A stretch of DNA of 64,000 nt from Trueperaceae bacterium (GCA_965213925.1 OZ243927.1:4256001-4320000), one strand, 5' to 3'; positions 44,484 to 56,672 are shown, counted from the stretch's first letter. The notes: generated by a model from the sequence alone, not told the origin. Numbers and translations: made by a program.

Positions 44484-45026
44484 TTATTTGCCTGCGTCTT
44501 CGGGATAGAGCGGCAGATGCCCGAGCGTGATCACGTCATCGCGCTCATCGCCTTCGGTCAAGACCGCAAAGGTCGCCACGACTTTCCCGCCCATTTCATC
44601 AATCAGCTCGCTCAGCACGCGCAAGGTCTCGCCGGTACTCACCACGTCGTCCACAATGGCGACGCGCTGACCCTCTATCTGCGGCTTGTTCGAGCCGTCA
44701 ATCACTAGATTCTGCGGTTTGCCCGTGGTGATTGAGACGACGCTCTTACTCACCGCATCAATCATGTAAGGCTTCTCCGTTTTGCGAGCGACGACATAAG
44801 GAATGCCTGTGCGTGCACTCATCGCGTGGGCTAAAGGCACCGCTTTAACCTCGGGCGTCACAAACGTGTCCACGTTCTCGGGCATCTGCTTGAGGAGTTC
44901 GTCCGCCGCCGCTTCGGTGAGTTTGGTGTCACCCAAGAGGTTGAGAAGCGCTACGGAGACGTCGCCGACGTTGATGATAGGAAGGTCGCGCTGTTCACTG
45001 CCGATCGTCACGGAATGAGTGGGCAT
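44484..45026 (-). CDS. Purine phosphoribosyltransferase family protein (APRT-like)
   Basis: VARK and [15 protein letters not shown]-binding motif. Confidence 0.85.
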
Positions 45027-45120
45027 AAGTAAGGTCTCCTCGAGAGGTTACGTTAGTCATACCACAACCAGTGGAGGGCGTTAGGGACGTTGCGCTTAGC
45101 GAGAGTTTAGAGCGTCTAAG

Positions 45121-45218
45121 AGCAATGAGCAATGAGTTCCAAGCAATGAGTCTAAAGCCTTTCACTCGTTGCTCACCGTACCGTCCAGCTCGACTGGATT
45201 GCTCGGTACTCATTGCTC
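45121..45218. repeat. Heptamer (GAGCAAT) inverted tandem repeat
   Basis: agcaatgagcaatgag...ctcattgct. Confidence 0.7.
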
Positions 45219-45842
45219 CTACAACCTTCTCTCCTTCGCATAGAGCGCCGCTTGCACCCTGTCTTTGACGCCCAACTTGGCGAAAATACTGCTCACATGC
45301 ACTTTGACCGTCTTTTCCGCGATGCCTAAAGCTGACGCGATGCGCTTGTTACTCATGCCTTCAGCGAGATGATTTAAGACCTCACGCTCTCTCGAGGTCA
45401 AACTTCCTAGCGGGTCGTCAAACGGTTGTGCGAGCATCCTCGTCGCTTCTGGGTCGAGCGGCAGTTCACCTCTTAAAGCAGCGCGAAGGGCGTCCGCGAG
45501 CCTATCCGGTCCCGAATGTTTGACCAAAAAACCCGACGCGCCTAGACGAAGAGCCTCACGCAGATAATCCTCTTCTAAAAAGCTCGTCAGCATAAGGACT
45601 TTAGGAGGTGACGCTAAGCTCAAGAGTTTGGGCAGGAGCCGTAATCCGTTCTCGCCGGGGAGTTGCACGTCTAAAAGGACCAGTTCGGGTTGCGTTCTAT
45701 TCACCAACTCGAGCCCAGAAACCGCGTCCCCCGCTTCGCCTACGACTTCGAAGTTTTGCAGTTCCAAAAACGCCTTTAAGCCTTCGCGCACGATAGGGTG
45801 GTCATCCACAATCACGAGGCGGGCGTTGGGGGTCTCAGCCAT
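45219..45842 (-). CDS. NarL/LuxR family response regulator
   Basis: VDDH, LLDV, LTS.E..VL...G.SNK.IA..L.I...TVK.H. Confidence 0.93.
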   Translation of the reverse strand: MAETPNARLVIVDDHPIVREGLKAFLELQNFEVVGEAGDAVSGLELVNRTQPELVLLDVQLPGENGLRLLPKLLSLASPPKVLMLTSFLEEDYLREALRLGASGFLVKHSGPDRLADALRAALRGELPLDPEATRMLAQPFDDPLGSLTSREREVLNHLAEGMSNKRIASALGIAEKTVKVHVSSIFAKLGVKDRVQAALYAKERRL

Positions 45843-46986
45843 TGGGGAGTGTGACCTCGAGGCGCAACCCTTGAGAAGAGGTCAGCTCGAGCCTCCCGCC
45901 GAGCGATTCAGCCCGCATCCTCACGCTTCTGAGTCCGAGCCCATACTCAACCTCTTCAGATAACCCTCGCCCATCGTCCTCGATGCTCAATGTGACCTCT
46001 TGTCCATCTCGCATCAGACGAATCCAAATATTGTTTGCACCCGCGTGTCTGAGCGCGTTATGCAGCGCTTCTTGGGCGACGCGGTAAAGCGCTTCGGCGT
46101 GGCGTTCGCTTAGCGTGAGGGGTTCGGTCTCGAGGTGCACCTTCACCCCCGTCTCTTGCGTGCGCTGCGCCAACCGTGAGAGCGCACTCGGCAAGCCTTG
46201 CGAGAGGTCGGCGGGGCGCAGCACTTCGACCAAGCCGCGCAGTTCGCCTAACGCATGATTCACTAGTTCAGCACCTCTCGCCAAACTTCGTTCCTGCTGC
46301 TCGCCCCGTCCCTCTTGCGCGACCTTGAGAGACAACTCCGCCCCGAAGAGAAGCTGCGCCACCGAGTCGTGCATCTCGGTGGCGAGGCGTTGGCGCTCCT
46401 CCAAGGTCGCCGCGTACCGCGCTTCACGCTCCCGTTCGGCTTGAAGTTTAGAACGCTCGAACGCCGTGCCGAGTTGCCGCCCCACCGTCGTCAAAAAGGC
46501 CAGCGTGTCCGCGTCAAACCGCTCGCGCCCTGCCGCCGCGAGGTTGAGAATCCCGACCGGACCGCTCTGCCCTAAAAGCGGCATACTGGCGTGAATTTCC
46601 AAGCCCTCTTTATCCTCCGTCGCCGCTTCTAAGCGGCTGCAGTGCACGATGTTGACACCTCTATCCAACTTACCTTGCTTAAAGAGCCACTGACAGTCAC
46701 AACTGCCGCCGCAAAGAGGTGCGTTATCGTCGCGGCTCAGCGCGGGCGGCAAGCCCGTTACCGCAGCAACCCGGAAGCTCCCCTGGTGGCTGTCACCCTG
46801 CGAGACGCGGGTTAGAAAGACCCAGCCCGCCTTGAGGTCTAAGAGGTCCACGAGCCGTTTCAAAGCACGCTGAGCCGCCACCGAAAAGTCACCCTCAGCG
46901 TTCAAGATGTCACCGACGGCATTCAGGGTGGAGAGTTCGCTGAGGCGCTGTTCGAGGTTGCGAGCTGATAGGTCCTGTACGTTCAT
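45835..46986 (-). CDS. Soluble GAF sensor histidine kinase (HisKA_3) with Cys-rich GAF
   Basis: LCGGSCDC...HCSRL; EERQRLA.EMHDSVAQ; EAL.NA.RHA; DDGRG; no TM segment. Confidence 0.9.
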   Translation of the reverse strand: MNVQDLSARNLEQRLSELSTLNAVGDILNAEGDFSVAAQRALKRLVDLLDLKAGWVFLTRVSQGDSHQGSFRVAAVTGLPPALSRDDNAPLCGGSCDCQWLFKQGKLDRGVNIVHCSRLEAATEDKEGLEIHASMPLLGQSGPVGILNLAAAGRERFDADTLAFLTTVGRQLGTAFERSKLQAEREREARYAATLEERQRLATEMHDSVAQLLFGAELSLKVAQEGRGEQQERSLARGAELVNHALGELRGLVEVLRPADLSQGLPSALSRLAQRTQETGVKVHLETEPLTLSERHAEALYRVAQEALHNALRHAGANNIWIRLMRDGQEVTLSIEDDGRGLSEEVEYGLGLRSVRMRAESLGGRLELTSSQGLRLEVTLPNG

Positions 46987-47125
46987 GTGGCTCCTGCGGC
47001 GTGAAAGGGGTCAGGGATTAGAATCCAGCCCACACCTTCTACTGTCTACCGAATTCTGACTACTGTCTACTCTTTTTACCAAATTCTGCTACGCTGTCCT
47101 CAATTCAACCTGAAGGAGAACCACC

Positions 47126-48436
47126 ATGCGGCGACTCTCGAGCTTTTTTGTAACCGTGATGCAGCGCTTTTTACCCGACCCCTGGGTGCTGGCGATTATC
47201 CTGAGCCTTATCGTGTACGCTGCGGGACTCCTCTTAACGGGCTCGAATCCTCTGCAGATGGTGACGTTTTGGGGTGACGGGTTCTTCGGGCTTTTAGAGT
47301 TTTCCATGCAGATGGTCCTCATCTTGGTGACGGGCTACGCGCTGGCGAGTACGGCGCTCGTGAAAGGTGGGCTCGAGGCGGTCGCCAAACGCGCCGGGAA
47401 CGCGGGCAACGCGGTCATGATCACAACCGTCTTCGCCGTCGTCGCCAGTTGGCTCAACTGGGGCTTCGGGCTCATCGTCGGGGCGCTTTTAGCTAAAGAG
47501 ATGGCGCGGCAGGTCGAAAACGTGGACTACCGCTTGCTGATTGCGGCGGCGTACAGCGGTTTTTTGGTGTGGCACGCCGGGCTCTCAGGCTCAATCCCTT
47601 TAGTCATCGCTACCGAAGGGCACTTCTTAGCGGAGCAGATGGGCGTCATCCCGACCTCACAGACGATTTTCACGGTGTATAACCTCGTCATCGTTTCCGC
47701 GCTCCTCATCGCGTTGCCGCTCACCAATAGACTGATGCTGCCTGCCGAGGGTGAGCGGGTCGTCGTGGACGCGGCGAAGTTAGAGGAGGACGAGGTAGAC
47801 GCGGACGACCTGCGCGGGACGCCAGCGGAGACGCTCGAGACTACCCCCTGGCTCTCTATAATTATCGGCGTCGGCGGGCTCGCTTACCTCTTCAGCTACT
47901 TCGCGGCGGGCGGCGGGTTGGGGCTCAATATCGTCATTTTCATCTTTTTTATGCTGGGTATCCTCCTGCACGGCACACCGCGCAACTACATCGCCTCATT
48001 CATCGAAGCGGTCAAAGGTAGCTCGGGCATCATCTTGCAGTTCCCCTTCTACGCCGGGATTTTAGGCATGATGGACAGCTCGGGCTTGGTGGACATTATC
48101 GCGGGCTGGTTCGTGGCGGTCTCGACGGCGCAGACGCTGCCCTTCTGGTCGTTTATCAGCGGCGGCGTGGTCAACTTCTTTACGCCTTCGGGCGGCGGGC
48201 AGTGGGCGGTGCAAGGTCCCATCATGATTCAAGCCTCGGAGCAGTTAGGCGCAGACCTCGCCAAAGTCTCGATGGGTGTGGCGTGGGGCGACGCCTGGAG
48301 CAACATGGTACAACCGTTTTGGCTCTTGCCTGCGCTTGGGATTGCCGGGTTAGAAGCGCGGGATGTAATGGGGTTTTGCGTGATGGCGCTGCTTGTTTCG
48401 GGCGTCCTCATCACGTTGGGGTTGCTTATTCTTTGA
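47126..48436 (+). CDS. atoE: Short-chain fatty acid transporter
   Basis: LPDP, NWGFGL, WHAGLSGSIPL, QFPFYAGI, PSGGGQW, MVQPFW. Confidence 0.88.
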   Translation: MRRLSSFFVTVMQRFLPDPWVLAIILSLIVYAAGLLLTGSNPLQMVTFWGDGFFGLLEFSMQMVLILVTGYALASTALVKGGLEAVAKRAGNAGNAVMITTVFAVVASWLNWGFGLIVGALLAKEMARQVENVDYRLLIAAAYSGFLVWHAGLSGSIPLVIATEGHFLAEQMGVIPTSQTIFTVYNLVIVSALLIALPLTNRLMLPAEGERVVVDAAKLEEDEVDADDLRGTPAETLETTPWLSIIIGVGGLAYLFSYFAAGGGLGLNIVIFIFFMLGILLHGTPRNYIASFIEAVKGSSGIILQFPFYAGILGMMDSSGLVDIIAGWFVAVSTAQTLPFWSFISGGVVNFFTPSGGGQWAVQGPIMIQASEQLGADLAKVSMGVAWGDAWSNMVQPFWLLPALGIAGLEARDVMGFCVMALLVSGVLITLGLLIL

Positions 48437-48443
48437 CTTTGAG

Positions 48444-48518
48444 AAGCAATGAGCAATGAGGAACGAGCAATGAGTAAAAACCTTTAGACTCATTGCTCAT
48501 TGCTTTCAACTCATTGCT
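48444..48518. repeat. Heptamer (GAGCAAT) inverted tandem repeat between convergent genes
   Basis: agcaatgagcaatgag...ctcattgctcattgct. Confidence 0.7.
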
Positions 48519-48548
48519 GTTTTGTGCCACTGCTCACGTAATCCCTCT

Positions 48549-49158
48549 TCAAAACGTATCTTCAAGCGAAAGGGCTACGCGGAGCGCTTGACCGAGTTCG
48601 GACAGAGTATCCTCTCCCAAGTTACCTACGTAGTTTGTCAGCACAGATTTTGGCAAGCTGACGAGGGTGTCACAGTGAACGCTCGAGCTGCGCTTTAACC
48701 CCTCGTCAATCCCGACGGCAACTTGCGTGCTCAGCGCGTCATACGGATTCCGTTTAATTCCCTATCACCGAGAAAAGCGTTCGATGATAGTCCATACACT
48801 CGAGTCCGTTTCGCAAGGGCGAAAACTACGTAAATCTTTGTTCCTTCTCGCAGAGAAGCCTTTAGCAGCAGGTCTAGCGGGAGCGGTCCACGCGCGACGC
48901 ATCTGGTCATCGAGTCAGCGTGTTAATAACGGCATGGTACGCCCTGCTAAAGGCTCTTTTCCGCTCGGATTGATTCGCTATGTTAGCGAATCAATCGGAA
49001 TCCTTATCATAGCGTGAATAGACGGGCGCACAGATGACGGTGGAGTAGGCTGAGTCTAGCAGCACCTGACGGCTCACGACCACGTAAACTCGGTAGGCTC
49101 GGGGGTCTTTATCGGGTGTGTTGGGGCGCTTGACGCGGTAGAGGTCCCCGCGCTTCAC
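48549..49158 (-). pseudogene. mazF: MazF/PemK toxin gene interrupted by a family A MITE
   Basis: 5' part MKRGDLYRV...[21 protein letters not shown]; 3' part [31 protein letters not shown]...ALRVALSL. Removing the MITE and one TSD gives a 113-aa ORF. Confidence 0.85.
48742..49006. mobile_element. MITE family A copy 2
   Basis: TACGGATTCCG...CGGAATCCTTA with TSD TCA/TCA. Confidence 0.88.
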
Positions 49159-49178
49159 GGCTGCTCTTGACTCTCCTC

Positions 49179-49406
49179 CTAAAAAACCTGCCCGACAAGG
49201 CTCAGGGTGTCGTGTGCTTCTTCGTTCAGCGCGTCCGCGCTACCCTGCAAGCGTTCCGCGTCACGCGCGTCCCTCTTGGCGCGTTCGCGCTTTTGCACGA
49301 GCTGCCGCGCCGCATCGAGAAAGAAAGCGCTGCGAGACTCGCTCTCCAAAAGCGCGTCGTCAATACGGTTTAGAAGCTTAGCGTCCAAGGTGATACTGGT
49401 TTTCAT
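49179..49406 (-). CDS. Ribbon-helix-helix antitoxin
   Basis: [12 protein letters not shown]......SRS.F; lies upstream of the mazF remnant; leaderless TATACT within a taccgc/gcggta inverted repeat. Confidence 0.82.
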
Positions 49407-49445
49407 ACCGCGCAGTATACCAAAGTTTGCGGTACTATTGACCCT

Positions 49446-49817
49446 TCAGGATATGTCTTTATGCCACCACTCGAGCCACTCTCTACACAACCCTTCACGA
49501 TTGAATCTTCCGACGCTCACGCCGTTGACTACGGCTCGCTCTCTCGTCTTCGCGTCGGTGTAATGTGCTTGCCAGTTCACCACCGCCCGCTCAGCCGTCA
49601 CCGCTAAAACCTCAAACGATACGCTGACCTCTTCTTGCTCCGCGATCATCTCTCGCCAATACCTCTCGACCTCTTCACGTCCTCTAAGCGGTTCGCCAAA
49701 AGGATCCTCACGGTAAGAAACGTCCGTACTGAAGAGGTTAGCGGCTGCCTGGGCGTCCCGGTTCTCCCAAGCCTCACCCAGACGCTGCATCCAACTCGCA
49801 AAACTTGCTTCGGTCAC
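49446..49817 (-). CDS. NTF2/SnoaL-like protein
   Basis: AWE.RD.....LF..D..Y...PF..P..GR..V..YW. Confidence 0.82.
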   Translation of the reverse strand: MTEASFASWMQRLGEAWENRDAQAAANLFSTDVSYREDPFGEPLRGREEVERYWREMIAEQEEVSVSFEVLAVTAERAVVNWQAHYTDAKTRERAVVNGVSVGRFNREGLCREWLEWWHKDIS

Positions 49818-50620
49818 GGCTCAATCGCCCTGATGTAACGCTCCGCCGAACGTCGCACCGCGTCTTTCGCGTCCTCTTTCACCACTGCGTCCCACCACGC
49901 ACCGTAGATACGCTCGAAGGCAAGAGGTCGGACGCTCTCGGCGATGTGCTCGACCTTTCTAGCGGGAAGCGGGATGAGGTTGGGATAGCTGTACATGAAG
50001 CTGACGAACGTTCTGTCGGGGATGACTTGGATGATGTCACCTGTAAGAAGAGCGCCGCGTCCGTCTGCGCCGTCAGACCAGTGCAAAACCGTGCCCCCGG
50101 CGAAGTGACCCCCTAAGCGGAGAAGCGTCAAACCGCCGAAGAGGTCTTTTTGTTCGCCGTCCCAGAACTCAATCTCTGGACTAGGGCGCATGACCCACTC
50201 GCGGTCAGCAGCGTGGAGGTAGACCGGGGCGTTAAAAGCTCGAGCATACTCGATCACCGAGCTGTAGTAGTGCGGATGCGAAACCGCAACCCCTTGTACA
50301 CCGCCCAAGTCGTTCAGTGCTGTAACCGTCGCGTCATCAAGCAAGCTGACGCAGTCCCACAAGAGGTTGCCCTCGTCCGTTTGCACCAGAAGCGCCCGCT
50401 GCCCGATGGCGAACTTGGGCTCGGTGCCGACGCCTGTGAGGTTGGACCCCAGCGTCTCGATACGGTTGCGATGGTCTTTTCGCAGTTCGTCCAACGTCGT
50501 CCACTGCTGCCCGCCCTGATTGACGTACTGCCGCTCGTCTTCGCAGATGGGGCAGTGCTCGGGTGGCGCGTCCGTCGCGGCGAACTGCGTGCCGCAAGTG
50601 ATACAGATGAAGTTAGGCAT
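49814..50620 (-). CDS. MBL-fold metallo-hydrolase with N-terminal zinc ribbon
   Basis: CITCG...CPICEDERQY, SHPHYY, GGHF.G, TGD. Confidence 0.85.
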   Translation of the reverse strand: MPNFICITCGTQFAATDAPPEHCPICEDERQYVNQGGQQWTTLDELRKDHRNRIETLGSNLTGVGTEPKFAIGQRALLVQTDEGNLLWDCVSLLDDATVTALNDLGGVQGVAVSHPHYYSSVIEYARAFNAPVYLHAADREWVMRPSPEIEFWDGEQKDLFGGLTLLRLGGHFAGGTVLHWSDGADGRGALLTGDIIQVIPDRTFVSFMYSYPNLIPLPARKVEHIAESVRPLAFERIYGAWWDAVVKEDAKDAVRRSAERYIRAIEP

Positions 50621-50643
50621 TGCTTCTCCTCATAGCGTCAAGC

Positions 50644-51048
50644 TTACCAATGTGCTTGTCCCGCCTCTTTGAGCGCGTGCTCGCGCCAGCAGGTCACCTC
50701 TAAGAAATTCCCGTCAGGGTCGGTGAAGTAGAGCCCGGTGGCGGATTCACGCTTGAGCACGTCGAGGTCTTCCAGCTTAGGCTTGAGTTGTGTCAAAAAG
50801 CTTCTTGGCGCACGAAACGCGAGGTGGGCGGAGAGGTCGAGACCTGTTTTCTCCGCCAATACCTTCGGCGTCTGCTCGGGCGCGAGCGTCAGGTTGAGCG
50901 TTTGACCCGGACCGAAGTTGAGCCAGAGGTAGGAGGAGGTGAGAGGTCTCGAGTCCACCACCCGCATTCCTAAAACGTTGCGGTAAAACGCTACCGACTT
51001 CTCAATATCTGAAACGCAGATCGCCGCATGGTCGAGTCCTTGAATCAC
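50644..51048 (-). CDS. VOC/glyoxalase family protein
   Basis: LDHAAI.V.D...S..FY..VLG, HLAF, YFTDPDGN.LE; GTGA overlap at 51045-51048. Confidence 0.85.
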   Translation of the reverse strand: MIQGLDHAAICVSDIEKSVAFYRNVLGMRVVDSRPLTSSYLWLNFGPGQTLNLTLAPEQTPKVLAEKTGLDLSAHLAFRAPRSFLTQLKPKLEDLDVLKRESATGLYFTDPDGNFLEVTCWREHALKEAGQAHW

Positions 51049-52154
51049 GCAGAACCCCTTTCCGACCTCTTCTCCGGCAAGATGAGGTGACTGTCGCCAA
51101 ATTCGTGCCACAAGTAGCCCGCTTTCACCGCTTCGGCGTAAGCCTCCCGGATGAGGTCTTTGCCCGCTAGCGCGTAGAGCATCGCCAAGTGGCTCGCTTT
51201 GGGGTCGTGAAAGCCGCTCAAAAGACCGTCCACCGCGTCCACACTGCGCCCTGGATGGACGTAGTGGCGCGTGAACCCTCTTACCACTCGCGTCTTTTCG
51301 CCGTCCCATGCCGACTCCAAAGCCCGCACGACGGTTGTCCCGACAGCTATGACGCGGCGACCTCTTGCCCTCGTTTCGTTGACTGCCTCGGCGACCTCTT
51401 GTGTGACCTCGAACGGTTCGGCGAAGAGGGTGTGATTCTCGATATCGTTTTCAGTCATCTCGAGACTACTCACGCCTGTATGGAGGGTGATTTTTTCTAA
51501 CCCGACGCCTTTATTTGTCAGACACGCCAAGACTTTCTCGCTAAAAGGTCGCGCGGCGGAGGGCATCTCAGCGCTGCCTATATCTGTACCTAGGGTGTCA
51601 GCGAAAATGGTTTGGTACGTAGAAAGCGGATAGGGCTTCTCCACGTAGCCGTAGCGAATCGGCTTGCCAAGGCGCTGCATGGCGGCGGACACGTCACCTT
51701 CCAAGCGGACAAACCACAACCTCGGCATTCCGGGATGAGGTCGGAGCAGCGTGGCGTTCAAACCTGCGGCGCGAAACGTTTCGCCAGCTTTAAGAGGAAG
51801 AGGTCCCGCCTTGTCATAGCTCCACCTCGGCTCGGCAAGCCACACCTCTGCTCCATCACTTGCGTCACTCGTTCCGAGGCTGTAGCGCGTCGAGAGGTTG
51901 AGGATAAAAGGTCCGACGCTCCCCTCGGCGGGCAAACTCGCGGGCAGCGTGGCGCTGCGGTTCACCACGAGTAAATCACCTGTGTCTAAGAAGTTGGCTA
52001 GATTTGCGAAGCGGCTGTGGTGATGACCTCGTCCTGTTTCTTTCTGTGTGCTGACGAGCAGCCTTACCTTGTCCCTAGAACCTAAGCGGAATTCGGCGGG
52101 CTCGGCGGCTTGGAGAGATTGAGGTCTGGGGAAATCCAACTCCGCCAACTTCAT
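51045..52154 (-). CDS. Divergent QueA-family (SAM:tRNA ribosyltransferase-isomerase-like) paralog
   Basis: GDLLVVN, YQTIFA, LHTG, AVGTTVVRALES and FGD are present, but the canonical AAPTAGLHF is replaced by SAEMPSAARPF. Confidence 0.85.
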   Translation of the reverse strand: MKLAELDFPRPQSLQAAEPAEFRLGSRDKVRLLVSTQKETGRGHHHSRFANLANFLDTGDLLVVNRSATLPASLPAEGSVGPFILNLSTRYSLGTSDASDGAEVWLAEPRWSYDKAGPLPLKAGETFRAAGLNATLLRPHPGMPRLWFVRLEGDVSAAMQRLGKPIRYGYVEKPYPLSTYQTIFADTLGTDIGSAEMPSAARPFSEKVLACLTNKGVGLEKITLHTGVSSLEMTENDIENHTLFAEPFEVTQEVAEAVNETRARGRRVIAVGTTVVRALESAWDGEKTRVVRGFTRHYVHPGRSVDAVDGLLSGFHDPKASHLAMLYALAGKDLIREAYAEAVKAGYLWHEFGDSHLILPEKRSERGSA

Positions 52155-52894
52155 CCTAAAACCTCCCCGGACACCTCTTGCTCGGTTCTTTGTCGCGTCT
52201 CCCAACGCTCACCTTGCGCTTGGAAGCGCCCTCCACTGACCTCTTTGGGGTCTTGCCCCAACAGCCACGCCCAAAAGGGCAGCGTCACCTCGGGAAGAGG
52301 TCTATCTGAAATATCCTCACCCGGAAACGCCGCTTGGTGCATCGCGGTGCGCATGTCGCCGGGGTCTACGCTCACCGCACTTACGCCTTCGTTGGCGAGG
52401 GTTGCGCTCAAGAGGTCCAAAGCGGCTTTGCTCGAGCCGTACCCACCCCAGCCCTCGTAAGCGCCGACAGCGGCGTCCGAGGAGAGGTTCACAATCAATC
52501 CGCCATCTCTGAGTAAAGGCAGCGCCTTTTGGATAAGTCCGAGAGGTGCGAAGACGTTTGTGTGGTAGAGGCGCTCTAACCTCTCCAACGGATAGTCTTT
52601 TAGAAGAGGTTGCGGGCTCGGTCCCAAGTCCGAAGCGTTATTGACGAGCAAATTTAAGCCGCCAAGTTCTTCAGCTTTTTCTATTAAAGCGCTGCGATGT
52701 TCTGCTTCACTTACATCACCCGCGAGCGTAATCACGCGACCTCTTGCCGTCTCTCTAAGTTTGGCTGCGCTCTTTTCCAAAACCTCTTGGTCTCTCGCTG
52801 TGAGCACCAAGTCGTAGCCTTGCGCCGCCAAAAAGTCGGTTAAGGTCAAGCCTAAGCCGCGGCTCGAGCCGGTGATTAACGCGACCCGGCTCAC
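52151..52894 (-). CDS. Short-chain dehydrogenase/reductase
   Basis: ITGSSRGLG, NNAS, YGSSK; ATGA overlap with the QueA-like gene. Confidence 0.9.
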   Translation of the reverse strand: MSRVALITGSSRGLGLTLTDFLAAQGYDLVLTARDQEVLEKSAAKLRETARGRVITLAGDVSEAEHRSALIEKAEELGGLNLLVNNASDLGPSPQPLLKDYPLERLERLYHTNVFAPLGLIQKALPLLRDGGLIVNLSSDAAVGAYEGWGGYGSSKAALDLLSATLANEGVSAVSVDPGDMRTAMHQAAFPGEDISDRPLPEVTLPFWAWLLGQDPKEVSGGRFQAQGERWETRQRTEQEVSGEVLG

Positions 52895-52941
52895 GTGTGA
52901 CCTCTTCGTTGTTCAGAGAAATTGCTCATTCGATAAGTCAT
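52891..52941 (-). other. Putative 16-aa leader ORF (MTYRMSNFSEQRRGHT)
   Basis: AGGAGG 5 nt before ATG; its TGA overlaps the SDR GTG (GTGA). Confidence 0.4.
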
Positions 52942-53100
52942 GACGACCTCCTAGCTCGAGTTTAGACCCCTGCCGGAGAGGTTCCATCCGCCTTTGACCC
53001 CAAGTGTTTCTAAGACTTTAGACCTACAAGGACAGGAGGGACAGGTTTGACTTACCCCTTCACAGCGCCGCACCACATCTACATTTGAATACAGCGCTTC

Positions 53101-53128
53101 GTAGGGGGGATTCATGAATCCCCCCTAC
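53101..53128. repeat. GTAG-type REP palindrome
   Basis: GTAGGGGGG-ATTCATGAAT-CCCCCCTAC. Confidence 0.75.
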
Positions 53129-53226
53129 GCCGTCCGCGACACCTGCACTATCCCTTTACGTTTCCGTAAACCTCTCTGTAGCGGTACAACTAAGCCTTGA
53201 CCTCTTCACCGCCGTAGAGTGTCCTC

Positions 53227-54435
53227 ATGGCTTCCTCGAAATCCGCCACAAAATCCAGCGCAAGCCGCAACGCCGTCATCACGGGTACGGGGCTCTCACT
53301 CCTCTTAGTCCTCGCGCACAGCGCCAACGACGCCTTCGCCAACATCTTGTCGGTACTTTTGCCGACGCTCCAAGCCCGCTTTACCCTGAGCGAGACGGTC
53401 TTGGCGAGCTTCGTCGCGGTGGTCTCCATCTCCTCGAACGTGCTGCAACCCGTCATGGGTGCACTTTCAGACCGCTGGGGCAAGCGGCGACTAGCAGCGC
53501 TAGGTCTCATCGCGGGCTCGGTTTTGATGAGCCTCTTGGCGGTCGCGCCGAGCGTGTGGATTTTGGTGCTCCTCTTGGCGGTGGGCGGGCTCGGCTCGGC
53601 GGCGTTTCACCCGGCGGCGAGTTCGATGGTGAGAGCGGCAAGTCGTAGGGAAGGGCTGAGCGTCGGCATCTTTACGGCAGGCGGACCCTTCGGCTCGGCA
53701 GTTGCGCCCGTCGTTGTGCTAGCAGTCATCGCCAACTACGGGACGAGCGCGGTGCCTTACTTGGCGCTTCCGGGCGTGCTCATCGGGCTGGTGTTGCTCT
53801 TCTTCGCGCCGCCTCAAGCGAAGTCGCCCGCGCATCGCCGCCCTAAACTCTTCGACTTAGACCTCTTTATGGGACCCATCGGCGTGCTCTGCGCGGTGGG
53901 CGTGCTGCGCTCGCTCGCGTACGTGACCTTTCTCAACGCGATGCCGCTCTGGTTAGTGGCGCAGGGGTTCGCACGCGACAGCGTGATGATCGGCTGGACG
54001 CTAGGGGTTTACAACGCGGCGGCGGCTCTGGGCGTGGTGATTTCGGGAGCGCTAGACGATAAGGTGAGCCGCCGCCTGTTAGTAGTCGGGAGCATCCTTT
54101 TGGCACTTCCCTTGATGGCGACGACGCTCTTCGTGCCGACGGGTTCGGCGCTCTTCTTCGTCAACGTGGCGCTCGCCGGATTGATGGCGAACGCGGCGAT
54201 TCCACTTCTGGTCGTGAGCGCCCAAGACCTCGCGCCGCACGCGGTCGCCACCGCCTCGGGGATGTTGATGGGCTTGACCTGGGGTACGGCGGGCGTGCTC
54301 TACCTCGGGCTAGGCGCGTTGCAGAGTACGCTCGGGCTCACGCCTGCGATTTTAATCGGCTACGCTTTTTTGCTGCCTGGGGCGGTGCTGGCGTATGTCG
54401 TTTTGGGGAAGCATCGTTCAAAAGTCGAGGGATAG
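53227..54435 (+). CDS. MFS transporter (Fsr-like)
   Basis: H..ND, QP..G..SDR.G, AFHP, ASG...G..WG. Confidence 0.85.
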   Translation: MASSKSATKSSASRNAVITGTGLSLLLVLAHSANDAFANILSVLLPTLQARFTLSETVLASFVAVVSISSNVLQPVMGALSDRWGKRRLAALGLIAGSVLMSLLAVAPSVWILVLLLAVGGLGSAAFHPAASSMVRAASRREGLSVGIFTAGGPFGSAVAPVVVLAVIANYGTSAVPYLALPGVLIGLVLLFFAPPQAKSPAHRRPKLFDLDLFMGPIGVLCAVGVLRSLAYVTFLNAMPLWLVAQGFARDSVMIGWTLGVYNAAAALGVVISGALDDKVSRRLLVVGSILLALPLMATTLFVPTGSALFFVNVALAGLMANAAIPLLVVSAQDLAPHAVATASGMLMGLTWGTAGVLYLGLGALQSTLGLTPAILIGYAFLLPGAVLAYVVLGKHRSKVEG

Positions 54436-54454
54436 TGTGAATCTCACGGACGGC

Positions 54455-54551
54455 GCAGGGGGAATTCATGAATTCCCCCTACGGGACTGCGCTCTGTTAG
54501 GCGCATTTTCAGGTGGCGTTGTATAGGGGAGGGTTTCAAACCCGCCCCTAC
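54455..54551. repeat. REP doublet
   Basis: gcagggggaATTCATGAATtccccctac (54455-54482) and taggggagGGTTTCAAACCcgcccctac (54524-54551). Confidence 0.7.
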
Positions 54552-54586
54552 TGACGAGCGAGTCTCGCAAGACTACAATGAGCCCC

Positions 54587-55090
54587 ATGACCATCCAAGA
54601 ACTCATGAACACGGTGCCGCAAAAAGGTAGCCTCAAGCACATCACCCTCCGCACCGAAAGGAGAGGTCAGGTCGAGCGTGTGGAAGAAACAGAGGTCATC
54701 GCAGGATTAGGACTCGCGGGCGACCACCGCACGAAGCGCAAAGAGGTCAACATGCAGAGCAAGCGCCAGGTGACGCTCATCCAGGCAGAGCACTTCCCGG
54801 CGCTCTCCGCGATGATGGGTCGCGAGGTTGTGCCGGAGGACACGCGGCGTAACTTGGTCGTGTCAGGCGTCAACCTCTTGGCGCTCAAAGACAAGCGGTT
54901 CAAAATCGGCGAGGCCATCTTTGAAGGGTCGGGGCTATGTCACCCGTGCTCGAGGATGGAAGAGACGCTAGGCGAAGGCGGCTACAACGTGATGAGAGGT
55001 CACGGAGGAATTTTGGCGAGGGTTTTGCAAGGCGGCACCATCCGCGTGGGTGACGAGGTTGTTTTTCTGCCGGGTGAGCTTGCCGATTAG
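54587..55090 (+). CDS. MOSC domain protein
   Basis: GLAGDH, RQVTLI, RRN, CHPCSRM, GG..ARV..GG.I.VGD. Confidence 0.88.
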   Translation: MTIQELMNTVPQKGSLKHITLRTERRGQVERVEETEVIAGLGLAGDHRTKRKEVNMQSKRQVTLIQAEHFPALSAMMGREVVPEDTRRNLVVSGVNLLALKDKRFKIGEAIFEGSGLCHPCSRMEETLGEGGYNVMRGHGGILARVLQGGTIRVGDEVVFLPGELAD

Positions 55091-55521
55091 GGGCTGAGCA
55101 GTTCCGAAAGCTCCTCCATCCGCTCGCGGTTCACGCCGAAGTCGCCGTAGCCCCGCCGCGCCGCCGAGCGGAAGTGGATGAGGTTGTTTCCGGTGTCTAA
55201 GTAGAACTCCACGTCGTCCACAAAGCCGAAGATGCGGCTGCGAAATTCGGCGCGCAAGTAGTTGCCGTCCCGCTTAACGATGCGCGTGCGCGGAAGGCGC
55301 GTGACCTCTTGGACAATGCGGTTCATCACGTTGCTCGGCATGTCTTCGAAGGGAACGGGCGCGATGTGATGCGCAAGGTCATCTTGCGGCGCTTGCGTCG
55401 AGACGCAGTTCGGGCTATTCGGGCAGGGCGCAAGTTCGCCGTTCACGACACCTAAGTCCTCGGGTGAACGTTCTTGACTGCTCTGCACTTGCTCGGTTGG
55501 TTCGGACGTTTGCTCAGACAT
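55087..55521 (-). CDS. DUF1499 family protein
   Basis: CPNSPNCVS, FVDDVEF, RSA.R.G..DFGVNR.R; GGAG RBS before ATG 55521. Confidence 0.85.
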   Translation of the reverse strand: MSEQTSEPTEQVQSSQERSPEDLGVVNGELAPCPNSPNCVSTQAPQDDLAHHIAPVPFEDMPSNVMNRIVQEVTRLPRTRIVKRDGNYLRAEFRSRIFGFVDDVEFYLDTGNNLIHFRSAARRGYGDFGVNRERMEELSELLSP

Positions 55522-55682
55522 AGAGACTCCGTGAATAGAGAAGGTCAAAAGGAGTGCAAGGAAGACCTCTTTGGAAAATACAGACATAGTGAACGAGATG
55601 CGTAGAGAACGAAGTAGCGCCTAACAAGGTCGTGCGGCTGAGCGCTAATCACCTCTTTACGCCCCTAGCCTAACCCCCTAGC

Positions 55683-56672
55683 TTAACCCCCTAGTCTAAC
55701 TAACGTCTGCCCTTGCGTCTGCCCCTGCAAAATTACGTCCACCGCGTCGTCAAGCTCATTCAGCGTGATCTCATTCGTGATGGCGTCTAGGTCGGGCTTC
55801 CACTCGTCCGCGAGCTTCGCCCACACCTCTTTGCGCTTCGCCATCGGGCACTGCGCCGAGTCCACCCCTAAGAGGTTGACGCCGCGCAGGATAAAGGGGA
55901 AAACCGTGAGGTCGAGTTTCGGTCCCGCTACGAGCCCGCACGCCGCCGCCGCCGCGCCCCACTTGAGCGACTTGATGACGTTCGTTAGGGTCGTGCCGCC
56001 CACCGTGTCAACCGCGCCGCCCCAGCGACTTTTGAGCATCGGGCGCTCCTGCTCTTCTGATAACTCGTGACGGTCTATGACTTCGGACGCGCCTAATGAT
56101 TTCAAGAGGTCATGCGCCTCCTTCGTGCCCGTGCTCGCCACCGTCTCGAAGCCGAGCTTGCCTAAAAGCGCCACCGCGACGCTGCCGACACCGCCCGTCG
56201 CGCCCGTCACAACGACGGGTCCGTCCTCTTTCGTTAAGCCCTGCCTTAAAAGCGCGTCTAAACAGAGCGCGGCGGTGAGCCCTGCCGTGCCTAAGACCAT
56301 CGACTCACGTAAGCTCAACCCTTGCGGCAGCGGAATCACCCAGTCGGCGGGCACGCGAATCATCCCGCCAAAGCCACCGTCCGTCTCCATGCCGAGGTCG
56401 TAACTCGTGACGATGACCTCGTCGCCCTCGCCGAAATCGGCGACGCTCGAGGAAACAACCGTTCCCGCCGCGTCGATCCCTGGGGTATGCGGATAGTTTT
56501 TCGTCACACCGGGGTTGCCCGTGGCGGACAGAGCGTCCTTATAATTCAGCGACGAGTACGCGACCTTGACGGTCACGTCGCCTTCGGGTAGGTCGCTGAC
56601 GTTAAGCTCTTGCAACGAGCGCGTCGTCTCGTCGCCCTCTTTTTCCACGCGGTAGGCCGTAAAGTCCGACAT
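55683..56672 (-). CDS. YhdH/AcuI family oxidoreductase (acryloyl-CoA reductase-like)
   Basis: YSSLNYKDAL, GTAGLTA, TGATGGVGS, PFILRGVNLLG.DS. Confidence 0.9.
   Translation of the reverse strand: MSDFTAYRVEKEGDETTRSLQELNVSDLPEGDVTVKVAYSSLNYKDALSATGNPGVTKNYPHTPGIDAAGTVVSSSVADFGEGDEVIVTSYDLGMETDGGFGGMIRVPADWVIPLPQGLSLRESMVLGTAGLTAALCLDALLRQGLTKEDGPVVVTGATGGVGSVAVALLGKLGFETVASTGTKEAHDLLKSLGASEVIDRHELSEEQERPMLKSRWGGAVDTVGGTTLTNVIKSLKWGAAAAACGLVAGPKLDLTVFPFILRGVNLLGVDSAQCPMAKRKEVWAKLADEWKPDLDAITNEITLNELDDAVDVILQGQTQGQTLVRLGG

Follow-up and report, generated by a model that had tools for sequence, protein, structure and literature searches.

Does every protein with the fold of QueA make queuosine? 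The question is raised by a locus in a stretch of 64,000 nucleotides (nt) from a Trueperaceae bacterium (GCA_965213925.1, OZ243927.1:4256001-4320000; the whole stretch is called the window here), where a QueA-like protein of 369 amino acids (aa) is encoded on the minus strand (51045-52154, from an ATG at 52154; Queuosine_synth, PF02547, 255.5 bits). Its directly upstream partner is a gene for a short-chain dehydrogenase/reductase (SDR; 52151-52894, minus strand, 247 aa, adh_short 124.9 bits in Pfam). To our knowledge, no enzyme other than QueA transfers and isomerises the ribosyl moiety of S-adenosylmethionine (SAM), and only one substrate of QueA is known. Here, we find that the QueA-like protein belongs to a widely transferred sister clade of QueA and is very probably not a queuosine enzyme.

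Both profile and fold place the protein in the PF02547 superfamily. The Pfam match is full length (profile positions 2-322 of 322), and an AlphaFold2 model built from 48 homologs (predicted local distance difference test, pLDDT, 89.9; predicted template modelling score, pTM, 0.91) shows the two-domain fold of QueA. Foldseek retrieved with this model only 1vky, 1wdi and 1yy3 at E<=1e-22 (E 1e-22 to 2e-24, 28-29% identity), the next match lying at E 0.1. ESM Atlas gave QueA-named clusters only, and databases name the genes of the clade 'S-adenosylmethionine:tRNA ribosyltransferase-isomerase'. The QueA equivalog cut-offs of NCBIfam were missed, with 191 versus 324 for NF001140, 162.7 versus 267.45 for TIGR00113 and 107.9 versus 588 for NF002398.

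Using maximum likelihood, we computed a tree of 99 sequences, 77 of the variant type and 22 canonical ones, the latter from Deinococcales and Acidimicrobiia only. One long branch splits the 77 variants from the 22 canonical sequences (100 for both the ultrafast bootstrap, UFBoot, and the Shimodaira-Hasegawa-like approximate likelihood ratio test, SH-aLRT; present in 200 of 200 bootstrap trees). Canonical QueAs of Deinococcales and Acidimicrobiia cluster together, apart from the variants of those same taxa. A QueA-family phylogeny had been proposed as a check by an earlier reading of the sequence alone (the sequence-only reading), and on this branch, as well as by its scores below the equivalog cut-offs, the window protein falls outside the canonical QueA clade.

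The same 77 variant and 22 canonical sequences, together with alignments to 1WDI and 1VKY, were used to compare motifs. At 36 positions both clades are at least 90% conserved and identical, among them YQT 180-182, GS 193-194, AVGTT..R..E 270-280, H316, Y339, Y347 and GD 353-354. A further 20 positions are conserved within each clade yet differ between the clades, and they group in five motifs: canonical PLPPYI is replaced by PIRYGY, AAPTAGLHF by AEMPSAaRPF, VGxGTF by TGVsSxE, TNFHLP..T by TGlHeP..SH and YRFxSxGDAM by YLWHEFGDsH. The window protein itself lacks the canonical signatures PLPPYI, GSvAAPTAGLHF, TNFHLP and YRFxSxGD and has PIRYGY, GSAEMPSAARPF, SGFHDP and YLWHEFGD instead. That is, the rewritten motifs which had been noticed from the sequence alone are real (AAPTAGLHF to AEMPSAARPF, NFHLP to GFHDP, YRFxSxGD to YLWHEFGD), as is the retained scaffold of YQT, AVGTT..R..E and GD. 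The variant gains E196, R202, H322, H350 and E351 and loses the arginines that are invariant in canonical QueA at positions 73, 179 and 348 of the window protein. Among database homologs found without motif selection, 115 of 120 carried GSAEMPS and 107 of 120 YLWHEFGD, while the canonical motifs occurred in none of the 120. Judged from these residue patterns, the shared residues may be the core for SAM and chemistry; the swapped ones may form an acceptor site that is new and might be a metal site. One Streptomyces PF02547 homolog (L137, G242:C25:679-1671), the top scorer of its sample (240 bits), reads YLWHDFGD and is without GSAEMPS; it may represent a further sub-branch of the family.

The second constant element of the locus is the SDR. 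We kept 80 loci out of 590 relatives, and since the search peptides included YLWHEFGD, motif invariance and pairing are biased in this set; an SDR 43-70% identical to that of the window lies directly upstream of the QueA-like gene in 76 of them, and the other 4 end at a contig edge. Unbiased samples, picked by hidden Markov model (HMM) searches, comprised 20 loci each from Acidimicrobiia and Streptomyces and 5 genomes of the window's own family. Here, pairing was observed in 17 of the 20 Acidimicrobiia loci (two were cut at the contig start and one was a degraded copy with an internal TAG), in 19 of the 20 Streptomyces loci and in 5 of 5 family genomes. None of the 22 canonical QueA loci had such an SDR inside 1.5-kb flanks. 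A 4-nt overlap of stop and start codons joins the two genes in 44 of 69 loci whose two open reading frames (ORFs) could both be delimited. The nearest paralog of the SDR in its own genome is 33-36% identical, versus 43-69% for the partners in other phyla and in archaea, and the pairwise-identity matrices of SDR and QueA-like proteins correlate with r=0.82, a value reached by none of 500 label shuffles and to which shared ancestry contributes. The SDR is thus a dedicated orthologous partner of the QueA-like protein. With its TGxxxGxG cofactor motif and N-S-Y-K tetrad it is a classical SDR; invariant among 48 partners are T8, G9, G13 and G15 of this motif, R34, N86 and the tetrad N113-S139-Y152-K156. 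We take R34 to be the arginine typical of NADP(H) users. In addition, 11 proteins combine PF00106 and PF02547, but most of the 8 that were scanned consist of truncated domains typical of frameshifted gene calls in metagenome-assembled genomes (MAGs). Given these truncated matches, and the different frames in five family genomes, such fusions were not counted as evidence.

Queuosine synthesis needs preQ1-tRNA, the product of tRNA-guanine transglycosylase (TGT), and co-occurrence with TGT would be expected of a canonical QueA. The window's own genome is 96.9% complete and contains one PF02547 match, the window gene, and one TGT far outside the window (G000:C1:487316-488500, compared with C1:4256001-4320000 for the window), in line with the earlier statement that the window has no tgt. 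A separate canonical queA, whose presence the sequence-only reading had wanted checked, is missing from the genome, and a separate tgt is present as one match. The word 'paralog' used in that reading holds for a distinct non-canonical clade; as the window gene is the sole PF02547 match, it is not a second copy within this genome. Profile searches of the genome found no match to QueH and none to QueG over the cut-off of 200 bits, and QueF stayed under its cut-off with 25.7 bits. Two partial QueC-like matches (profile positions 1-61 of 210, inside frames of 477 and 656 aa) are presumably other PP-loop enzymes. The QueG model matched six ORFs of 424-465 aa with 53-59 bits, and only over the iron-sulfur (Fe-S)/cobalamin core; they form three tandem pairs (G000:C1:2967704-2969296, C1:851081-852664 and C6:2365-3945) and are probably reductive-dehalogenase-like proteins.

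All 24 sampled genomes of the window's family have TGT; 10 of them carry the low-scoring variant, none has canonical QueA, and 14 have a TGT without any QueA-family gene. TGT therefore does not track the variant. The retention of TGT without canonical QueA is compatible with salvage of queuine directly by TGT and no other enzyme, or with a different use of TGT. In 20 of these 24 genomes, the profile match of TGT breaks near position 91, in an insertion-like manner. All 16 genomes of four sister families in the same order encode canonical QueA, at 403-453 bits. Elsewhere, both types occur side by side: among 151 sampled Acidimicrobiia genomes, 12 had both (at least 364 bits and at most 201 bits, respectively) and 9 the low-scoring type only, and all 20 low-scoring loci that were fetched proved to be window-type. 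Aquihabitans (G042), for example, has a 364.9-bit QueA adjoining tgt and a 155.4-bit variant 2.2 Mb away. Of 61 Streptomyces genomes, 40 contained PF02547 and one contained TGT, and this one was without PF02547; since these hosts lack TGT, the preQ1-tRNA substrate cannot exist there. Relatives of the variant were also found in MAGs of Thermoplasmata and Bathyarchaeota, and one archaeal genome (G045) has the variant only, plus two matches to the TGT family (PF01702). That is, the variant is independent of TGT and of canonical QueA, and the clade very probably does not make queuosine. In an alphaproteobacterial MAG that carries a variant copy (G044, copy L031), the queA-tgt region (G044:C13:104529-106721) was recovered only in short pieces in different frames and with TGA stops, which reflects either a pseudogenised queuosine pathway or assembly errors.

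Next to the pair, regulators recur. In the window these are a cytoplasmic sensor kinase (45835-46986, minus strand) with a Cys-rich GAF domain followed by HisKA_3 and HATPase domains in Pfam, and a NarL/LuxR-type response regulator (45219-45842, minus strand; Response_reg 93 bits, GerE 81.8 bits) that overlaps the stop of the kinase gene by 8 nt. Of the 80 loci, 44 have a HisKA_3 kinase near the pair, as do 18 of the 20 Streptomyces loci. Similarity to the window kinase is full-length in Chloroflexota, Acidobacteriota and Bacillota and limited to the kinase core in Actinomycetota, and a kinase-regulator pair adjoins the module in L022, L025, L027, L030, L032, L064 and L075. Among the 24 family genomes, which are related and thus not independent, the kinase orthologue and the variant co-occur in 9 and are both missing from 13, each being found alone in one (G007 and G003); in G003, a 620-contig assembly, no SDR/QueA-like pair lies within 8 kb of the kinase. 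The GAF-kinase neighbourhood, whose conservation the sequence-only reading had wanted tested, is hence conserved in several phyla. The kinase is missing at the archaeal and Acidimicrobiia copies; archaeal loci have MarR-type regulators in its place, and an ArsR-type helix-turn-helix is encoded downstream in Dormibacteria (L086) and fused after SDR and QueA-like domains in P0129. In one family genome (G002), the kinase orthologue is located 1.25 Mb from the module.

The GAF domains of Deinococcota and Chloroflexota kinases beside the pair (L022, L025, L026, L027, L032) have in common a cysteine cluster, GSC(D/Y)C...(I/T)CSRL, which reads GSCDCQW...CSRL in the window kinase, with an additional PLC in Trueperaceae; the Streptomyces kinase is without it. 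This pattern suggests redox or metal sensing. No solved relatives of the sensor domain were found, the PDB matches of the kinase being the ATPase domains of DesK and DevS/DosT. Expression of the module is probably controlled by the adjacent kinase and NarL regulator.

The sequence-only reading had taken five genes as one pathway unit. Their layout was confirmed: five co-oriented genes with three 4-nt ATGA/GTGA overlaps and one 23-nt gap. Read directly in the sequence, the junction of SDR and QueA-like genes is an ATGA at 52154-52151 with GGAGG upstream, and a GTGA at 51048-51045 joins the QueA-like gene to that of a VOC (vicinal oxygen chelate)/glyoxalase-fold protein (50644-51048, minus strand, 134 aa from the GTG at 51048; Glyoxalase 50.4 bits). 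The TAA of the latter is followed by 23 nt that include AGGAG and then by the ATG, at 50620, of an MBL (metallo-beta-lactamase)-fold protein (49814-50620, minus strand, 268 aa; Lactamase_B 24.7 bits at a cut-off of 22.7) with an N-terminal Cys4 zinc-ribbon-like motif. Another GTGA, at 49817-49814, leads to a SnoaL_2/NTF2-like protein (49446-49817, minus strand, 123 aa; SnoaL_2 64.1 bits). Scans for promoters and terminators gave site numbers not above those in shuffled sequence.

As a pathway unit, the five genes did not hold up, since beyond the window's family VOC, MBL and SnoaL genes are not kept (2, 0 and 1 of the 80 loci, respectively). They are too rare in these loci to be core pathway members and are add-ons of the window's genus or family only. 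The conserved unit is the SDR and the QueA-like protein, often beside a GAF/HisKA_3 kinase and a NarL regulator, and not five genes. Of the neighbours whose conservation was to be tested, the SDR and, in several phyla, the GAF kinase thus stand, and VOC outside the window's family does not. In the same genus, SDR, QueA-like, VOC, MBL, SnoaL and kinase genes are contiguous in G001, where the kinase directly follows SnoaL. VOC is missing in G002, also of this genus; the two HMM-detected loci with a VOC near the pair are L027 (G005, two VOC genes) and L033, and the VOC HMM recovered seed sequences only. MBL follows the QueA-like gene in G001, G002 and G012, the last having only MBL of the three add-ons. 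SnoaL is conserved in G001 and G002, its single match among the 80 loci is weak, and a SnoaL_2 gene lies near the pair in archaeal L038. Sporadic neighbours in 24 diverse loci were VOC, AlkZ-like, arylamine N-acetyltransferase and SnoaL proteins. The MBL protein matched no NCBIfam family, and a rubredoxin-like Pfam match (17.9 bits) was below cut-off. For VOC, the best NCBIfam matches were Fos-type thiol transferases (25-45 bits against cut-offs of 171-310); this assignment was rejected, with 45.3 bits versus 180 for the best of them, leaving generic Glyoxalase membership in Pfam. At the G002 locus (L158, G002:C2:123000-133000), which is without VOC, tblastn aligned the QueA-like gene as two segments (residues 1-329 and 313-365), a split that points to a frameshift near residue 320; the SDR/QueA-like module may be decaying there.

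Relative to G001, about 2.5 kb are inserted between kinase and SnoaL in the window (46987-49445). On the opposite strand, the insert encodes a transporter of short-chain fatty acids (47126-48436, SCFA_trans 488 bits); it further contains a 75-aa ORF without Pfam match (49179-49406, minus strand) and, as a fragment, the N-terminal 55 aa of a PemK/MazF-like toxin (48991-49158, minus strand; 21.9 bits versus a cut-off of 23.1, profile positions 1-48 of 109). If the 75-aa ORF is taken, from its sequence, as a putative ribbon-helix-helix antitoxin, these two resemble the remains of a toxin-antitoxin pair. A gene with a phosphoribosyltransferase domain (44484-45026, Pribosyltran 60.6 bits) adjoins the response regulator gene on its downstream side. 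Although adenine is a by-product of QueA, we treat this neighbour as a coincidence, as Pfam searches of 24 other loci revealed no phosphoribosyltransferase among the ORFs up to about 3.5 kb from the pair.

What, then, might the pair do? We propose, at a probability of about 0.55, that SDR and QueA-like protein are a regulated two-enzyme module which carries out SAM ribosyl-transfer/isomerase chemistry on a soluble, non-tRNA acceptor, combined with NADP(H)-dependent tailoring; any particular acceptor is much less probable than that. Work of the Iwata-Reuyl laboratory on QueA reportedly identified the product as an amine-linked epoxy-dihydroxycyclopentane, formed along with adenine and methionine. 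By analogy, the QueA-like enzyme would bind SAM and an ylide would form at C5'; the ribose ring would open with loss of adenine, a nucleophile would add at C4', and carbocyclisation and loss of methionine would follow. A soluble metabolite, instead of preQ1 in tRNA, would serve as the acceptor nucleophile, and the product would be an epoxy-dihydroxycyclopentyl (or related C5) adduct. With NADP(H), the SDR would then act on this adduct, oxidising or reducing a hydroxyl or carbonyl of the ring, or it would act earlier, in preparing the acceptor. In the window's genus, VOC, MBL hydrolase and SnoaL/NTF2 proteins might process the product further, for instance by epoxide opening through VOC or SnoaL, and the Cys-rich GAF kinase with its NarL regulator would control expression, with induction by a redox, metal or small-molecule signal. 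We also entertain, at a low probability, that the product of the pair is a free carbocyclic metabolite derived from SAM, namely an epoxide or diol of aminocyclopentane that resembles the side chain of queuine. It would have a role in signalling or stress, its level would be sensed or controlled by the adjacent Cys-rich GAF kinase, and the cassette would have spread horizontally between soil bacteria and archaea.

Several points weigh against chemistry on a soluble acceptor. Seen alone, the window's own genome, with one TGT and no other QueA-family gene, leaves room for a role on salvaged preQ1-tRNA. The use of SAM is deduced from the conserved shared residues, and we know of no ligand-bound QueA structure by which SAM-binding could be told from tRNA-binding residues. 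The ranges of net charge and isoelectric point (pI), a proxy for tRNA binding, overlap between variant and canonical proteins. Besides the selection bias of the 80 loci, YLWHEFGD varies in the HMM-picked Acidimicrobiia loci (Y[LRFHQ][WR]HEFGD), and the Streptomyces homolog L137 has neither SDR nor kinase within 3 kb. Among 110 neighbouring ORFs of the 24 diverse loci, Pfam searches for a third conserved gene found that only regulators recur, and no transporter. No riboswitch or RNA leader was found at 45000-56000 of the window or in five loci. Finally, epoxide processing by VOC and SnoaL may be suggested by resemblance at the superfamily level only.

Two other explanations would keep the enzyme on nucleic acids. 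A fast-evolving but genuine QueA that turns preQ1-tRNA, from salvaged preQ1, into epoxyqueuosine in this organism would suit a genome (96.9% complete) that has one TGT and the window gene as its sole PF02547 match, and the fold and 36 core positions common to QueA. We regard it as highly improbable, for 40 Streptomyces genomes that lack TGT contain the clade, as do archaea, the variant coexists with canonical QueA in 12 genomes, and 14 of 24 family genomes keep TGT without a QueA-family gene. Moreover, in the window's own genome QueG and QueF stay under cut-off, QueH has no match and QueC-like matches are partial, the scores of the variant are far under the equivalog cut-offs, and the SDR linkage is missing at 22 of 22 canonical loci. 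Alternatively, the acceptor could be an amine-bearing base in tRNA, rRNA or DNA, modified independently of TGT. To this the canonical arginines 73, 179 and 348, which are lost, are an obstacle, as is the absence of any conserved nucleic-acid enzyme nearby in 24 loci. The occurrence of the variant is patchy and accessory-like (10 of 24 genomes in the window's family, 40 of 61 in Streptomyces), and for enzymes of the translation machinery it is unusual to spread from one domain to another along with an SDR and local regulators. Such an acceptor seems unlikely to us, even if tRNA is the only known substrate of the family, the N-terminal beta-barrel domain and overall architecture are kept and the pI overlaps that of canonical QueA.

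An enzyme that uses water as nucleophile could degrade or repair SAM, cleaving it (or its damaged or wrong-isomer form) to adenine, methionine and a C5 carbonyl or epoxide, which the SDR would reduce to a harmless polyol. Two enzymes would be enough for this, no acceptor-supplying gene is conserved, an SDR suits carbonyl reduction, and stress-type regulators (GAF kinase, MarR, ArsR) adjoin the pair in different lineages. However, the five strictly conserved remodelled motifs add the charged or His residues E196, R202, H322, H350 and E351, which suggests a specific second substrate and not water, and no linkage to methionine or adenine salvage was seen, bar the one unconserved phosphoribosyltransferase gene at 44484-45026; we consider a SAM lyase improbable. 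That the protein is a non-catalytic, ligand-binding or regulatory subunit of the SDR or of the two-component system might be concluded from the change of all signature motifs of the active enzyme and from the tight linkage to kinase and regulator. But in bacterial and archaeal proteins that are 43-67% identical the replacing motifs are themselves near-invariant, the core residues in common with QueA are retained, and the archaeal and Acidimicrobiia copies are without kinase, which makes a non-catalytic role very unlikely.

If the proposed two-enzyme module on a soluble acceptor is correct, a second branch of the QueA family, of large size and strict conservation, would point to another biological use of this chemistry, and a free carbocyclic metabolite, if real, would be the first case in which ribosyl-transfer/isomerase chemistry acts elsewhere than on tRNA. 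Hosts of the branch are Streptomyces (probably S. coelicolor among them), many further soil bacteria and archaea without a queuosine pathway. With two genes, the module is small and experimentally tractable. We found no study of a QueA paralog or of this clade in the literature, subscription-only papers not being covered. QueA is called a unique enzyme in a review (PMC9092360), and an Iwata-Reuyl laboratory paper on its mechanism is listed as reference 59 in PMC5699537. A comparative survey assumes the known function for detected homologs (PMC6063277); surveys of this kind could miscount QueA.

Among models of known anti-phage defence systems, PADLOC 2.0 gave no match for the QueA-like, VOC, MBL, SnoaL and kinase proteins, 16 bits for the SDR and weak generic matches for the response regulator (CARF3 and SduA, 18.6-30.5 bits). 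With DesK/NarL-class (HisKA_3) systems that have GAF sensors (DevS/DosT), the window shares the HisKA_3 and HATPase core and the NarL-type regulator; unlike DevS/DosT, its kinase has a single GAF with a CxC...C cysteine cluster. FosA, FosB and FosX, fosfomycin-modifying VOC enzymes, and NTF2 proteins of the limonene-epoxide-hydrolase type open epoxides, and a QueA-type product would carry an epoxide. The VOC protein resembles the former in its best NCBIfam matches and the SnoaL_2-fold protein the latter as NTF2-like, but the Fos scores are far below cut-off and both genes are missing in nearly all other loci. S. coelicolor SCO1801-SCO1804 matches the module in gene content (NarL regulator, kinase, SDR and 'QueA'), and 18 of the 20 Streptomyces loci have a layout with the kinase divergent from SDR-QueA-like. 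In the literature, SCO1804 is given as QueA in a table on tRNA modification in Streptomyces, in a section without Tgt (PMC4932002), SCO1803 is an SDR-type dehydrogenase (PMC11272600), SCO1802/SCO1801 are an unnamed kinase/NarL pair (PMC9739842), and SCO1801 stands in a transcriptome table (PMC3897704). Streptomyces kinases resemble that of the window in the kinase core only (query residues 200-383), and VOC, MBL and SnoaL do not occur there; judged from annotation and layout, not sequences, SCO1803/SCO1804 are probably a copy of the module. With QueA itself (EC 2.4.99.17; PF02547; PDB 1VKY, 1YY3, 1WDI), the window protein shares the two-domain fold, the full-length Pfam match and the core positions, but it differs by a separate clade, five replaced motifs, independence of TGT, coexistence with true QueA and pairing with an SDR. 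It belongs to a well-defined sister family of QueA that has a reductase as its obligate partner.

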